Shown: positions 12,390 to 17,654 of the stretch, piece after piece
How the letters are laid out: every line of letters begins with the position of its first letter
Numbering within the stretch: the stretch's first letter is position 1
Notes under the pieces: model-generated
Told to the model about the DNA's origin: nothing
Databases searched by the model: none
Seen by the model: only the letters and a program-made list of their open reading frames with translations
Translations under genes and position numbers: made by a program
DNA from: a virus
DNA length: 64,000 nucleotides
Virus record (IMG/VR): IMGVR_UViG_3300022213_000004
Strand: one strand, 5' to 3'

Positions 12390-13391
12390 ATGGATTTTCT
12401 TGCTGATATTGTAAAAGAAATCGGTGGCGAGTATACGCAACTTGCAACAGATATTGATGAGACTGAGACTTATGTTGACACAGGTTCGTATATTTTTAAT
12501 GCACTGGTTTCAGGTAGCATATTTGGTGGTGTATCTGGGAATAAGATTACTGCTATTGCTGGAGAGTCTAGTACTGGAAAAACTTTTTTCAGCCTCGCCG
12601 TTGTTAAGAATTTTCTTGATACCAATCCCGATGGTTATTGTCTCTACTTTGATACTGAAGCTGCTATAACTAAATCTCTTCTAGAGAGTCGTGGTGTAGA
12701 TACTCAACGCCTTGTAGTTGTGAATGTTGTAACTGTTGAAGAGTTTCGTAGTAAGGCACTTAAGGCAGTTGATATTTACCTGAAGAAAAAAGAGGATGAA
12801 AGAAAACCTTGTATGTTTGTTCTTGATTCTCTTGGAATGCTTTCAACCAATAAAGAAATTGGAGATGCTCTTGCCGAAAAAGACTCAAGAGATATGACAA
12901 AGGCACAACTGATTAAAGGTGCTTTTCGTATGTTGACTCTCAAGTTGGGGCAGGCAAGCATTCCAATGATCGTGACAAATCACACTTATGAAAGTATGAG
13001 TTTATATGGTGGCAAACAAATGAGCGGTGGATCAGGAATTCAATATGCTGCCTCTACAATCATTTATCTTTCCAAATCAAAAGAGAAAGAAGGAACAGAG
13101 GTTATTGGAAACATTATTCGCGCCAAAACACAAAAATCACGTTTGAGTAAAGAAAATCAAGAAGTTCAAATTCGTTTATATTATGATGAACGCGGTCTGG
13201 ATCGATATTACGGACTACTTGAACTCGGTGAGATTGGAGGTCTGTGGAAAAATGTCGCAGGTCGTTATGAGATTGATGATAAGAAACTTTATGCCAAGCA
13301 AATTCTTAAAGAACCCGAAGTGTATTTTACTGAAGAAGTGATGCAAAAGTTGGACGAAATCGCACGTAACGAATTTAGTTACGGGTCATAA
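12390..13391 (+). CDS. uvsX: RecA-like recombinase UvsX
   Basis: AGESSTGKT, YFDTE, VLDSLG and VTNHTY motifs. Confidence 0.95.
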   Translation: MDFLADIVKEIGGEYTQLATDIDETETYVDTGSYIFNALVSGSIFGGVSGNKITAIAGESSTGKTFFSLAVVKNFLDTNPDGYCLYFDTEAAITKSLLESRGVDTQRLVVVNVVTVEEFRSKALKAVDIYLKKKEDERKPCMFVLDSLGMLSTNKEIGDALAEKDSRDMTKAQLIKGAFRMLTLKLGQASIPMIVTNHTYESMSLYGGKQMSGGSGIQYAASTIIYLSKSKEKEGTEVIGNIIRAKTQKSRLSKENQEVQIRLYYDERGLDRYYGLLELGEIGGLWKNVAGRYEIDDKKLYAKQILKEPEVYFTEEVMQKLDEIARNEFSYGS

Positions 13392-13405
13392 TCAATTTCT
13401 ATCTG

Positions 13406-13948
13406 ATGATAAAGATTCTAAAAACAGGCATTAATGTATTTAAAGTTGTAAATCAACTTAAAAAATATCCACAGGATTGGGATCATCAGAAACATCTGAA
13501 GAATTCTCAGTCCTTAGTTGATAGAGGATTTGCTGACTTGCCAGTGAGTGCTCTTCAACTTATAATGGGTGGGGTTAAAAGTAAAAAAGACTTTGTTGGA
13601 GATTCTGAAATCAACATCAAAACTCCAGCATACGAACATCACAGTGAAATCAGAAAGATTATACGCAAGCACTTTGGGAATAGAGAACTACATCGTTGTG
13701 GATTTCTTTCTCTTCCTGTTGATGAAATCGTTGGTGCTCACATTGATGAAGGTACTTATTACTTAACAAGAGACAGATATCATCTTTCCATTGTTGGAAG
13801 ATATCAATATTTCTGTGGAACTGATAGCGTGATTATAGAACCTGGAACTCTTTTGTGGTTTAATAATAAGATACCTCATGGAGCCGTAAATATCGGTGAT
13901 GAAACAAGAATAACCTTTGTATTTGATATGCCACATGGACCAAGTTGA
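13406..13948 (+). CDS. 2OG-Fe(II) oxygenase, Asp/Asn beta-hydroxylase-like
   Basis: HID...RYH...WFNNKIPH...RITFVFD. Confidence 0.8.
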   Translation: MIKILKTGINVFKVVNQLKKYPQDWDHQKHLKNSQSLVDRGFADLPVSALQLIMGGVKSKKDFVGDSEINIKTPAYEHHSEIRKIIRKHFGNRELHRCGFLSLPVDEIVGAHIDEGTYYLTRDRYHLSIVGRYQYFCGTDSVIIEPGTLLWFNNKIPHGAVNIGDETRITFVFDMPHGPS

Positions 13949-14573
13949 ATTTCTTATTCTCCGTAATCTTTTACATAATGAGCAATATATTAGAAAAGTA
14001 ATACCTTTCATCAAATCTGAATATTTTGAAGATCAAAATCAAAAGATTGTATTTGAAGAAATACTTTCTTTTGTTCAAGAATATAATCAACCAGCAACAA
14101 AAGAAGTTCTCTGCATTGAGGTTGAGAAAAGAGCAGATATTAATGAGCAATCTTTCAAAGAAATCATTCAAATAATTTCTTGCCTAGAAGATGTTCCAGC
14201 AGAATTTAATTGGTTAGTTGATACTACTGAAAAATGGTGTCGTGATCGTGCCATTTACTTGGCACTTATGGAATCTATTCATATTGCTGATGGAAAGGAC
14301 GAAAAAAAGAATCGTGATAGCATTCCTTCTATTCTCTCTGATGCTCTTGCTGTAAGTTTTGATAATCATATCGGACACGATTACTTACAGGATTATGAAC
14401 AAAGATATGAGTCTTATCATAAAAAGGAGGATAAAATTGAATTTGATCTTGAGTACTTTAACAAAATCACGAAAGGTGGTCTTCCTAACAAGACTCTCAA
14501 TATTGCTCTCGCTGGTTGTGTTCATCCAGAAACCAAAGTTAAAATTAGGTTTAGGAAACGTAGTGCCATTTAG
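13935..14573 (+). CDS. gp41: Replicative helicase gp41 N-extein fused to an 18-aa N-intein
   Basis: EKWCRDRAIY...IGHDY...GGLPNKTLNIALAG, then CVHPETKVKIRFRKRSAI-stop. Confidence 0.9.
   Translation: MDQVEFLILRNLLHNEQYIRKVIPFIKSEYFEDQNQKIVFEEILSFVQEYNQPATKEVLCIEVEKRADINEQSFKEIIQIISCLEDVPAEFNWLVDTTEKWCRDRAIYLALMESIHIADGKDEKKNRDSIPSILSDALAVSFDNHIGHDYLQDYEQRYESYHKKEDKIEFDLEYFNKITKGGLPNKTLNIALAGCVHPETKVKIRFRKRSAI
14517..14570 (+). mobile_element. Split intein N-fragment (IntN, 18 aa)
   Basis: Cys1 and block-A-like CVHPETKV inserted within Walker A (AG|TGVGKS). Confidence 0.88.
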
Positions 14574-15225
14574 ATTTTTTTGATTTACATCTTTGAACCA
14601 TTGCTCCAACTGTGATATTATTTTTTAATGCCGCATCAGTAATAGAATCATAAATGTTTATTCCATCACTAACTTTTCTTCTTCTTGATGATGGTTTATT
14701 TGTTTTTATTCCTTTATTTGGACTCTCTATTGGTGACCCAAAAATGTATCCTTTTTCTAAATAAAAATCAATATCTTTCGGACTTACTCTTATAAAAGTA
14801 GTGTCTCCTGGTCTGTGCATAACTTTTTTACCTTTGTGTGATTTTCCACCAAGAGATGCCCATTCTTTGTGAAGTTCTTTATTATTTTTATATTGATGAA
14901 ATCCTAATCCAAGTTCTGCTTGCTTTTTTCCTCCAATTTTTCCTTTTTTAGATGCTTGAGTTTTTCTTATCTCTTTTGGAATATAAAATTTTTTTCTTAA
15001 AAATTGAGCAGACCATAAATCATTTACATTGTGATTTATTTTCCATAGCAAATAATGAACTATGAAATGTTCTCTTTCAGTTAAGTATGAAAAATTTTCT
15101 TCATTATCACCACCCCCAGAATGTTTTGGTATAATATGGTGTTTATGCAGACCACTTTTTTCCTTATACTCTAGTTTTCTTTTACATCCTGCTTCTATTA
15201 TGTTATGATGTATTTGATTAAACAT
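14551..15225 (-). CDS. HNH endonuclease between the intein halves, antisense
   Basis: HKHHIIPKHSGGGDNEENFSYLTEREHFIVH; minus-strand TATAAATA near 15247-15254. Confidence 0.9.
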   Translation of the reverse strand: MFNQIHHNIIEAGCKRKLEYKEKSGLHKHHIIPKHSGGGDNEENFSYLTEREHFIVHYLLWKINHNVNDLWSAQFLRKKFYIPKEIRKTQASKKGKIGGKKQAELGLGFHQYKNNKELHKEWASLGGKSHKGKKVMHRPGDTTFIRVSPKDIDFYLEKGYIFGSPIESPNKGIKTNKPSSRRRKVSDGINIYDSITDAALKNNITVGAMVQRCKSKKSKWHYVS

Positions 15226-15258
15226 TATACTCCCTGCTAATACTATTATTTATATAAA

Positions 15259-15633
15259 ATGTGGATTGAAAAAGAAACATCAATTGCTGAAATCAAAACA
15301 TTACTTGATAATGGATATGAAGTAGAAGTTGATTCACCTGATGGATATGTTCCTGTTAATTTTTTTATTAATAAGGGAATGTATGATGAATATGTTTTAA
15401 AGGTTGATGGATATGAACCAATCAAATGTAATGCAGATCATTTATTTGAAACATCTTTTGGATGGATGAAAGCATCTCATCTTTATGAAAAATACCAGAT
15501 AATGCATTTTCTAACAGAAAATGGTTATAAACTTGGTAGTGTCTTTAAAACGGGAAATCAAATACCTATTGTAGATATTAATGTAAATCATCCAAATCAT
15601 AGGTATTATACTAATGGTATTTCCTCTCATAAT
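15259..15633 (+). mobile_element. Split intein C-fragment (IntC, 125 aa)
   Basis: Block B CNADH; block F IVDINV...HRYYTNG; terminal SHN followed by +1 Thr. Confidence 0.9.
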
Positions 15634-16428
15634 ACTGGAGTTGGAAAATCTTTGTTTATGTGTCACGTAGCAGCATCAGTTCTTCTACAAGGACGGAACG
15701 TTCTGTACATTACGCTGGAAATGGCAGAAGAACGCATTGCTGAAAGAATTGACGCAAACCTCCTAAATGTACCTATTCAAGATATTGTTGATCTTCCAAA
15801 GCAAATGTTTGAAACTAAGGTTACAAATCTTGCTAAGAAAACTCAAGGTACTCTTATAATTAAAGAATATCCAACAGCATCCGCACATGCAGGTCACTTT
15901 AAGTCACTTCTTAACGAACTTTCACTTAAGAAGTCATTTAGACCTGATATTATTTTCATTGATTACCTTAATATTTGTGCTTCCAGCAGGTATAAAGGAA
16001 ATAGCAATATCAATTCTTATACATTTGTCAAAGCAATTGCTGAAGAACTTAGGGGACTTGCAGTGGAGTTTAATGTCCCTATCGTCAGTGCGACACAGAC
16101 GACAAGAAGTGGATTTGGTTCATCTGATCCAGAATTGACCGATACAAGTGAGTCCTTTGGTCTTCCTGCTACTGCCGATCTTATGTTTGCCCTTATTAGT
16201 ACAGAAGAACTTGAAGGTCTTGGACAGATTCTTGTAAAACAACTTAAGAATCGTTATAATGATCCTACCATTCATAAAAGATTTGTGATTGGTATTGACC
16301 GTGCAAAAATGCGTCTTTATGATTGCGAACAATCTGCTCAACAAGATATCCTTGACAATGGAAAGGATGAAGAGTATGATTATGAAGAAAGAAAACCTAA
16401 AAAATCATTTGAAGGATTTAAATTCTAA
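15259..16428 (+). CDS. gp41: C-intein fused to the gp41 helicase C-extein
   Basis: After SHN comes TGVGKSLFMCH...YITLEM...IFIDYL...ATQTTRSG...SESFGLPATAD. Confidence 0.92.
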   Translation: MWIEKETSIAEIKTLLDNGYEVEVDSPDGYVPVNFFINKGMYDEYVLKVDGYEPIKCNADHLFETSFGWMKASHLYEKYQIMHFLTENGYKLGSVFKTGNQIPIVDINVNHPNHRYYTNGISSHNTGVGKSLFMCHVAASVLLQGRNVLYITLEMAEERIAERIDANLLNVPIQDIVDLPKQMFETKVTNLAKKTQGTLIIKEYPTASAHAGHFKSLLNELSLKKSFRPDIIFIDYLNICASSRYKGNSNINSYTFVKAIAEELRGLAVEFNVPIVSATQTTRSGFGSSDPELTDTSESFGLPATADLMFALISTEELEGLGQILVKQLKNRYNDPTIHKRFVIGIDRAKMRLYDCEQSAQQDILDNGKDEEYDYEERKPKKSFEGFKF

Positions 16429-16429
16429 T

Positions 16430-16843
16430 ATGACTCAAGTTATTGATACAAACAAATATATTGAATTCGTTCGTCAAACTACAAGTCCAGCAAGCAGTGA
16501 TTTTGCTCAACTACTTGCTCGTATGACTGAACTTGAAGCAACTAATGATGCTGATGTTCCTCGTCTTCTTACTGCTGCCCTTGGTATGAGTGCAGAGTGT
16601 GGAGAACTGGTAGAAATTATCAAGAAAATTCTACTGCAGGGAAAATCTTATAATGAAGATAATGTTATTCATATGAAAAAAGAAGCAGGTGATGTGCTTT
16701 GGTATATGTCTCAACTTTGTATTGCTTTAAACACTACATTTGAGGAATTGATGGAAATTAATTATCAAAAACTATCAGCAAGATATCCGGAAGGAACTTT
16801 CTCTGTCTATAAATCAGAAAATAGGGCAGAAGGAGATATTTGA
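16430..16843 (+). CDS. mazG: MazG-like NTP pyrophosphohydrolase
   Basis: LGMSAECGELVEIIKK...KKEAGDVLWY...N.QKLSARY. Confidence 0.9.
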   Translation: MTQVIDTNKYIEFVRQTTSPASSDFAQLLARMTELEATNDADVPRLLTAALGMSAECGELVEIIKKILLQGKSYNEDNVIHMKKEAGDVLWYMSQLCIALNTTFEELMEINYQKLSARYPEGTFSVYKSENRAEGDI

Positions 16844-16848
16844 TTTAT

Positions 16849-16872
16849 GGAGGTTGAAAAACCTCCTTTTTT
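16849..16872 (+). terminator. Intrinsic terminator after mazG
   Basis: ggaggt/acctcc stem followed by a T-run. Confidence 0.75.
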
Positions 16873-16925
16873 GTTATTTCTGTAATCTCTATAATTTATA
16901 AATAATAATAGAGTTAAAGGTAATT

Positions 16926-17654
16926 ATGAATTATATTGTATATGCATATTGTAATGAATTTGGAAAATTTTATTATATTGGTAGAGGAAGAGTAGGTAGA
17001 GAAATAGAAAATCATAAAAGGATAAAAGTTCCTCCAAGAGAAAGAATTTCAATACTACATAAAAATCTAACTAAACAAGAAAGTGTTGATTATGAAAAAG
17101 GTTTAATTAAATTTTATGGAAGAAAAATTGATGGTGGAATATTAGAAAATTTAAGTATAGGTGGGCATTGCGGTTCTGAAGGAGTTCCTCCTTGGAATAA
17201 AGGTAAAAGGTGTGGATATATTTCAGAATCAAATAGTAAAAGAATTGGAGAATTACATCCACTTTATGGTAAATCTTTATCAAGAGAGATAAGAGATAAG
17301 ATTAGTCAATCTAATAAAGGAAAAAAACATACCGAAGAATCAAAAAATAAAATTAGTGAGAGTAATCTTGGAGTTAAAAAAACAGAGGAGCATAAAAAAA
17401 ATATAAGTAAAGGTAAAAAAGGTATGAAGCAATCTGAAACTCATAGACAAAATAATTCTAAAAGTAAGTGTAAGTTTTTATATAAAATTGAAACGCCCAC
17501 TGGAGAAATTGTTGAAACTGAAAATATGAGGAAATTTAGTATTGAAAATAATCTACCTCCAGCATCTATGCATAGGTTATCTACTGGTCAGTATATTGAA
17601 TATCGTGGATATAAATTAGTTGATAAAATTGAGTTAATAGTAAAACCAACTTGA
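16926..17654 (+). CDS. GIY-YIG-like homing endonuclease with NUMOD3 repeats
   Basis: YIVYAY...FYYIGRG; GKKHTEESKNKIS-type repeats; TATAAATA in an upstream ctctat/atagag hairpin. Confidence 0.85.
   Translation: MNYIVYAYCNEFGKFYYIGRGRVGREIENHKRIKVPPRERISILHKNLTKQESVDYEKGLIKFYGRKIDGGILENLSIGGHCGSEGVPPWNKGKRCGYISESNSKRIGELHPLYGKSLSREIRDKISQSNKGKKHTEESKNKISESNLGVKKTEEHKKNISKGKKGMKQSETHRQNNSKSKCKFLYKIETPTGEIVETENMRKFSIENNLPPASMHRLSTGQYIEYRGYKLVDKIELIVKPT

Follow-up and report, generated by a model that had tools for sequence, protein, structure and literature searches.

A gp41 helicase gene split by an antisense HNH cassette within a VidaL-family intein: likely protein trans-splicing in an uncultured cyanomyovirus

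Split inteins with a short N-terminal piece (IntN) are in demand as tools for the semisynthesis of proteins and for labelling in live cells, and the natural examples characterised to date are few (PMC13014065, PMC10189870). The published atypical N-terminal pieces are 25 residues long in AceL-TerL, 37 in GOS-TerL, 16 in VidaL and 15 in PolB16, the last of which has been called the shortest characterised (PMC10189870). VidaL (PDB 6vgv/6vgw) is a natural intein split at the S1 site, after its first strands (PMC13014065), and its published pieces are an IntN, CLPKEAVVQIRLTKKG, that follows the residues ESG of its host, and a C-terminal piece (IntC), MIEKKVTVQELRELYLSGEYTI...HPNHRYYGDGIVSHN, that precedes SGK (PMC10264447 supplement). 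Another related group is that of the fractured genes, among them the cyanophage-like gp41-1 to gp41-7, for which Dassa et al. (2009; PMC2677866) proposed a gene-breaking model in three steps (I-III): a mini-intein is invaded by a nuclease gene, the invader brings a stop and a start codon, and the nuclease is later lost. Here, we describe a gp41 helicase gene on a stretch of 64,000 nucleotides (hereafter the window; IMG/VR record IMGVR_UViG_3300022213_000004), which is part of the genome of an uncultured T4-like cyanomyovirus. The gene is interrupted by an intein that sequence and model comparisons assign to the VidaL type, and an antisense HNH homing endonuclease gene lies between the intein halves.

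Anatomy and conservation of the interrupted gp41 gene

The best-covering matches to positions 13400-16900 of the window are the Synechococcus phages SynMITS9220M01 and S-SM2, at ~75% nucleotide identity, both of which have the gene order uvsX, small open reading frame (ORF), gp41 and mazG, with gp41 unbroken. In the window, gp41 consists of two plus-strand ORFs, located at 13935-14573 and 15259-16428. The first opens with an N-extein of 194 residues (13935-14516, plus strand) that contains the Pfam DnaB N-terminal domain, is 80% identical to residues 1-195 of S-SM2 gp41 and ends in ...KTLNIALAG, the first half of the Walker A motif. It runs on into an IntN of 18 residues, CVHPETKVKIRFRKRSAI, and a stop codon (14517-14573, plus strand; residues at 14517-14570), in which Cys1 (14517-14519) is the first nucleophile; this piece is homologous to the IntN of VidaL and of the UvsX intein of phage PA5oct, and its core CVHPETKVKIRF is kept among the relatives. 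The second ORF begins with an IntC of 125 residues, MWIEKE...SSHN (15259-15633, plus strand), which starts MWIEKETSIAEIK, ends NHPNHRYYTNGISSHN and holds block B (CNADH), block F and block G (SSHN). Its C-terminal stretch HRYYTNGISSHN stands directly before TGVGKSLFMC, where the C-extein of 264 residues starts with TGVGKS and continues to a stop codon (15634-16428, plus strand; TGVGKSLFMCHVAA). This part matches Pfam DnaB_C at E 3e-17, is 83% identical to residues 187-458 of S-SM2 gp41 and supplies both the rest of Walker A and Thr+1, the second nucleophile. When joined, the exteins (194 + 264 residues) align end to end, with neither gap nor overlap, with the unbroken 458-residue S-SM2 protein, and the joint LNIALAG/TGVGKSLFMC (a slash marks the splice junction) is the P-loop of S-SM2 gp41, which reads LNIALAGTGVGKS.

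The gap between the two ORFs is filled by a free-standing HNH homing endonuclease gene of 224 codons on the minus strand (14551-15225). Its product contains the Pfam HNH domain and a C-terminal I-TevI-like DNA-binding domain (Pfam I-TevI_DNA-bd), and matches PHROG homing-endonuclease families (PHROG 655 at E 2e-12). The last seven codons and the stop of this gene overlap the IntN tail by 23 nucleotides (14551-14573), such that the stop codon falls antisense within the F-R codons of IntN. An assembly artefact is excluded, because the same stretch is carried by an independent contig and by 14 DNA runs: a DNA contig from an independent estuary metagenome covers 14486-15723 (IntN, the HNH gene and the whole of IntC) with zero mismatches, and the exact stretch was found at 75-98% of sampled words in runs from estuarine, freshwater, aquatic and marine metagenomes, which belong to at least 8 studies and are dated 2016-2025. 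The original prediction, made from the letters of the window, had described an 18-residue IntN after ALAG, a 125-residue IntC before TGVGKS, a minus-strand HNH gene that fills the gap and overlaps the IntN end, and a Walker A motif restored by joining the exteins. Each of these elements was recovered in our analysis.

Among solved structures, the best sequence match to IntC is the VidaL intein (phmmer E 1.3e-11), followed by the Spl DnaX mini-intein and, more weakly, by gp41-1. The same relationship was obtained from the AlphaFold model of a contiguous relative (L039, with an IntC 88% identical to that of the window; predicted local distance difference test score 93.5), for which VidaL was the best fold match (Foldseek E 2.6e-12, template modelling scores 0.85/0.90, root mean square deviation 1.5 A), ahead of the DnaB, RecA, gp41-1 and NrdJ-1 inteins; all of the top PDB matches were inteins. 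This model locates the break in the loop that connects strand 12-18, the first long strand, with strand 24-29, and IntC residue 4 aligns with residue 23 of the fused VidaL chain, which places the split at the S1 site as given for VidaL. Cys1, the terminal Asn125 and Thr+1 can be read directly from the sequence, blocks A, B, F and G are those of a HINT fold, and removal of the in-frame insertion restores the Walker A motif of the host. Judged by these features, by the two ORFs with their short IntN (14-23 residues among the relatives) and by the significant similarity to VidaL in both sequence and modelled structure, the element is a class-1 intein of the VidaL type, split at S1. The comparison with known atypical split inteins thereby bore out the earlier suggestion of an atypically split intein resembling VidaL.

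We consider it likely that gp41 has been split by an antisense HNH cassette within this intein and that its halves are trans-spliced to a helicase of 458 residues. The anatomy, the homology, the conservation and the insertion point are shown by the sequences, and the splicing, the promoter use and the homing are predicted from them. According to the mechanism that we propose, the only replicative helicase gene of the phage bears a class-1 mini-intein of the VidaL family between the Gly and Thr of the Walker A P-loop, and a mobile cassette of ~690 bp with the HNH endonuclease has entered in antisense orientation at the loop after the first strands (the S1 site). The left end of the cassette completes a stop codon, leaving a basic IntN of 18 residues on gp41N, and its right end an ATG, such that an acidic IntC of 125 residues heads gp41C. 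The two polypeptides are expected to associate after translation, whereupon Cys1, Thr+1 and the terminal Asn would perform trans-splicing and yield a helicase with an intact AGTGVGKS loop and the joint peptide LNIALAGTGVGK.

The conservation of the intein is consistent with such a function. The junction SSHN/TG is invariant in 76 of 76 relatives, and across the 76 IntC sequences the same holds for block B (CNxxHLF) and for the greater part of block F, the Asp included. A wider alignment of 42 sequences, with identities as low as ~35%, still shows no variation at the block B His, the block F Asp or the terminal His-Asn; in the numbering of the model, the invariant residues are H83, D128, H136 and H146-N147. 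The median pairwise ratio of nonsynonymous to synonymous substitutions (dN/dS) is 0.26 for IntC, versus 0.12 in the adjoining extein, and a comparison of the window with its relative L002 gave dN 0 and dS 0.13 for IntC; the sequence comparisons thus indicate that IntC is under purifying selection. The net charge is +5 for IntN and -7 for IntC, and a basic IntN with an acidic IntC fits what is expected for fragment capture.

Furthermore, the arrangement is commoner than the original prediction had assumed: we found 729 homologous protein clusters, mostly IntC-gp41C forms of 388-393 residues, the wider family comprises 269 clusters at the 50% level, and hundreds of independent contigs carry the two ORFs in intact form. 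One relative, on a contig of 233,886 bp that is 100% complete according to CheckV, contains exactly one gp41 C-extein, the split one, and no second gp41 is present within the 64-kb window. Four loci (L037, L038, L066 and L069) are split at the same place and lack the nuclease gene, which suggests that the two-piece state is maintained on its own. Taken together, the split intein probably works, and the essential helicase appears to depend on protein trans-splicing with Thr+1, a dependence that had been proposed earlier and that is supported, as far as sequence can tell, by the invariant junction, the purifying selection and the single split gp41 of the complete relative.

Origin of the split and the nuclease cassette

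To place the split in context, we retrieved 80 IMG/VR loci with IntC, of which 70, the window included, show both flanks. The antisense HNH gene is alone in the gap (~685 nucleotides) in 39 of these loci and is accompanied by an extra plus-strand ORF of unknown function in 18; three loci have another or a decayed insert, six have a contiguous mini-intein with no insert, and the remaining four are the split loci that lack a nuclease gene. The HNH gene thus sits in the same loop, at full length and in the same orientation, in 57 of the 70 loci. Across the insertion point, the contiguous alleles read AGA TTT AGG AAG ATT TCT TGG TGG ATT GAA (RFRKISWWIE; ...RFRKISWWIEKE...), and the commonest split alleles read ...ATT TCT TGA, the cassette, and then ...AAA ATG TGG ATT GAA. 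The two states differ by a clean insertion inside one TGG codon, such that the cassette ends complete a stop and a start codon, in agreement with the earlier claim that insertion of the HNH gene caused the split. In the HNH lineage of the window (224 residues; also in L009, L056 and L059-61), the left boundary is located 8 nucleotides further upstream, which gives the ...RKRSAI tail, and the right boundary is the same as in the other split alleles. The nuclease-free joints read TGAttATG in L037 and L038, and the stop and start codons overlap in L066 and L069. All three stages of gene breaking are thereby present in the sequences of one intein, and the 2009 model fits.

Intein-free gp41 alleles (...GCTGG/AACGGGTGTTGGGAAA...; 14515/14516 junction) were also observed in an estuary sample that contains the intein-bearing allele (runs X3, DNA, and X17, an RNA library), indicating that potential homing targets are present in the same community. 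The extra plus-strand ORFs of 18 relatives are 100-280 residues long and lie between the IntN stop and the antisense HNH gene (for example L015:2457-3230, L002:2825-3307, L025:1984-2820, L004:438-1004 and L007:2924-3295, all on the plus strand). None of them matches Pfam, and in several cases (e.g., in L005 and L007) a TATAAATA-like motif stands ahead of the ORF, immediately behind the stop codon of IntN. They may represent cargo genes that ride with the cassette.

The cassette also carries candidate expression signals. A sigma70-like promoter, TTTACA-17-TGnTATGAT, matches the consensus at 15181-15209 on the plus strand, inside the antisense HNH coding region and ~49 nucleotides upstream of the IntC ATG; it is a candidate early promoter for IntC-gp41C. 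An equivalent pair of hexamers is located 47-59 nucleotides upstream of IntC in all 55 nuclease-bearing loci tested (mostly TTGACT/TAGAAT, 10-11 of 12 matches), and is present in both main HNH lineages though the amino acids encoded on the opposite strand differ. This conservation is suggestive only, because the loci are related and the sites are inside coding sequence. On the minus strand, the HNH gene is preceded by the T4-type late promoter motif TATAAATA (15254 to 15247) and a GGGAG Shine-Dalgarno sequence (15234 to 15230; signals spanning 15230-15254), with the ATG at 15225 to 15223. In 59 relatives, the spacing between this motif and the IntC ATG is constant, and 2 further relatives have the motif at a different spacing; it is missing in 15, the cassette-free loci included. 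Its role as a late promoter is suggested by analogy with T4-like late promoters. Neither start-codon region, that is, the HNH leader and the IntC leader, folds better as RNA than its shuffles, and no hairpin accompanies the late promoter of this HNH gene.

These signals can reasonably be taken to mean that gp41C is an early product, arising by read-through and/or from the cassette-borne sigma70-like promoter, and that the nuclease follows late, under the control of its own TATAAATA promoter. Being antisense, the nuclease gene would then stay silent at the time when the helicase is required.

The nuclease lineage does not track the intein. The two main HNH lineages share ~37% identity, and the locus L002 has an IntC identical to that of the window, yet its HNH protein is only 36% identical. 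Conversely, HNH genes 94-96% identical to that of the window lie beside IntC sequences of 92% (L009) and 69% (L059-61) identity. Among locus pairs, 72 combine an IntC identity of at least 90% with an HNH identity below 50%, and 23 an IntC identity below 75% with an HNH identity of at least 90%. These patterns argue for recent exchange of cassettes between intein alleles, from which it follows that the HNH enzyme is probably active; its probable effect is to carry the cassette, and perhaps the intein as a whole, into alleles that are without it.

An alternative is that the intein splices and that the HNH gene is an inert passenger, a frozen accident whose product no longer cuts DNA. Decayed or lost HNH genes do occur (L025, L031 and the four split loci without the gene). 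We nevertheless regard an inert passenger as unlikely, given the full-length ORF in 57 of 70 loci and the recurrence of one HNH lineage in different intein backgrounds.

The analysis also raises the broader hypothesis that the antisense cassette is a self-contained gene-splitting module with all of the signals needed to keep the host gene alive: the IntN stop, the start codon of IntC with an early-type promoter ahead of it, and a late promoter and Shine-Dalgarno sequence for the nuclease, set back to back with the beginning of IntC, the promoters being consensus matches. Such a module would home specifically into the S1 loop and its nuclease lineages would swap between intein alleles, with one natural population preserving the whole cycle from contiguous to nuclease-split to nuclease-free alleles. 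We judge the chances of this hypothesis to be evenly balanced. If true, it would document how atypical split inteins with a short IntN arise.

Homing-endonuclease-like elements are abundant in the genome to which the window belongs. Another free-standing ORF of this kind (242 residues, PHROG 314/655) lies at 16926-17654 on the plus strand, shortly downstream of a mazG-like gene; its N-terminus looks GIY-YIG-like, and basic motifs of NUMOD-like character recur behind it.

Alternatives to trans-splicing

Could the two halves of gp41 form a helicase of two non-covalent subunits, in which the intein pieces merely hold the halves together and no peptide bond is made? The break falls inside the P-loop (AG/TGVGKS), for which reason an active ATPase by mere association is very unlikely; ~140 intein residues would occupy the ATP site. 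Moreover, association alone would not need Cys1, the block B His, the block F Asp, the terminal His-Asn and Thr+1, all of which are strictly conserved. We therefore consider a two-subunit helicase highly improbable.

It is even less probable that gp41 is a dead, disrupted gene in a defective or decaying phage, with the intein-like flanks as relics and no helicase being made. It is true that a selfish element interrupts the gene and that the sequence covers only 64 kb of the genome. However, the intact ORFs in hundreds of independent contigs, the invariance of all catalytic residues, the dN/dS ratio well under 1, the complete relative genome without another gp41, and the finding of an identical allele in at least 8 studies over nine years are not what would be expected of a decaying gene.

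If the interruption were removed from the RNA, through an intron or through bypassing, a continuous gp41 message would result, and one contig from an RNA library does join position 14516 to 15688. This contig is ~9% diverged from the window, with 24 other letters in 273, and its joint contains 54 diverged letters. Moreover, run X3 shows this intein-less junction in DNA, with a loose end at 14515, for which reasons we rejected the joint as RNA splicing and attribute it to a diverged, intein-less allele of a related phage. Low-depth contigs from RNA run X16 are continuous from IntC into the extein (15526-15671), which fits an unspliced message but could also represent carry-over of DNA. In a search of both strands of 13800-16500, no Rfam family reached E 0.1, and no group I or group II intron structure was found. 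With the nuclease gene antisense and in-frame intein motifs encoded in both flanks, RNA-level removal is the least credible of the alternatives.

We thus favor trans-splicing of the two gp41 halves, as predicted from sequence, while acknowledging several points that weigh against it. The complete relative provides the sole argument, by analogy, against a second gp41 beyond the 64 kb. The RNA data consist of low-depth contigs from mixed communities that may include carry-over of DNA, and such sparse and mixed metatranscriptome contigs do not reveal expression, strand or transcript ends. The promoters, for their part, were identified by consensus inside coding sequence and among related loci.

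Relation to known split inteins and fractured genes

Inteins of the VidaL type and fractured genes have both been published before, and the novelty of the locus is modest. The new details are the antisense orientation of the nuclease, the cassette's own signals and the complete series of gains and losses. A tblastn search with IntC against a collection of 50,697 phage records detected no cultured cyanophage that carries the intein. The matches were distant relatives in UvsX of PA5oct-like Pseudomonas phages and in a few hypothetical or unannotated ORFs (for example in Salicola phage SCTP-2 and in an uncultured phage), and, among the matches listed, mostly in TerL of Klebsiella, Serratia and Escherichia phages. 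The VidaL-like family thus favours the Walker A loops of phage ATPases (UvsX, TerL and gp41).

The window intein shares with VidaL its sequence family, its fold, the split position after the first strands, Cys1 and the insertion into the Walker A motif of a P-loop NTPase. The short basic N-terminal pieces, CLPKEAVVQIRLTKKG in VidaL and CVHPETKVKIRFRK in the window, are alike in length, pattern and position, and the C-terminus HPNHRYY...SHN is common to both inteins. They differ in the host, which is UvsX in VidaL (ESG/SGK) and the gp41 helicase in the window, in the +1 residue (Ser versus Thr) and in the length of IntN (16 versus 18 residues), and their identity is only ~30%. The uvsX gene of the window (12390-13391, plus strand) is unbroken (IAGESSTGKTF), though VidaL and PA5oct carry the homologous intein family in exactly that P-loop. 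Thiel and co-workers reportedly listed 'VidaL T4Lh' inteins in T4-like helicases in 2014; hosts of the gp41 type may thus already be on record.

A homologous arrangement is present in the Pseudomonas jumbo phage PA5oct / MIJ3 (locus L001), in which a split intein in UvsX is 35% identical over the whole of IntC, has an IntN of 17 residues, CLPETAKVKIRLSKKQS, and likewise has its IntC at the start of the next host ORF. In contrast to the window, the host gene is uvsX and the intervening ORF, of 477 residues, is on the same strand. The pieces of the PA5oct locus (NC_071039.1, 134722-137728) are annotated only as 'hypothetical protein' and 'UvsX-like recombinase', with no mention of an intein. Since PA5oct is in culture, it offers an isolate in which trans-splicing of the VidaL-type family could be tested. 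A more distant kinship connects the window to AceL-TerL and GOS-TerL (PMC11766414, PMC13014065), which likewise come from phages, are naturally split with a short IntN (25-37 residues) and sit in a packaging or replication ATPase, but which are hosted by the terminase and split after the first helix (S2) rather than after strand 2.

The family offers many natural variants, with N-terminal pieces of 14-23 residues, Cys1/Thr+1 chemistry and ~30% identity to VidaL, which makes them candidates for orthogonal pairs. Two relatives (L007 and L050) have a natural IntN of only 14 residues (CVHPETKVKIRF[RK]K), one residue shorter than the PolB16 piece (PMC10189870).

With the fractured genes of Dassa et al. 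(2009), the window shares a free-standing homing endonuclease gene between the halves of a split intein, an invading element that supplies the stop and start codons, and the existence of split alleles without the nuclease gene. In those genes, all three ORFs are on one strand and the nucleases are GIY-YIG or Vsr-like, whereas the window and its relatives (57 of the 70 loci) have an antisense nuclease of the HNH type. Likewise, their gp41 is cut near residue 356 rather than in the P-loop, and the IntN has 88-105 residues rather than 18. The window gene is intein-free at the gp41-1 site (TQTTRSGFGSSD). Some relatives (P0004, P0063 and P0090) contain, besides the P-loop intein, another split intein, which is canonical, belongs to the published gp41-1 type (CLDLKTQVQTQQG...) and follows TQTTRSG[FY], such that their helicase comes in three pieces joined by two different inteins; in P0090, the P-loop intein is contiguous and gp41-1 is split. 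In abundant freshwater, estuarine and marine cyanophages, an essential replication enzyme appears to be dependent on trans-splicing, and the contiguous, nuclease-bearing and nuclease-free alleles that occur side by side provide an unusually complete natural record of the gene-breaking model of 2009.

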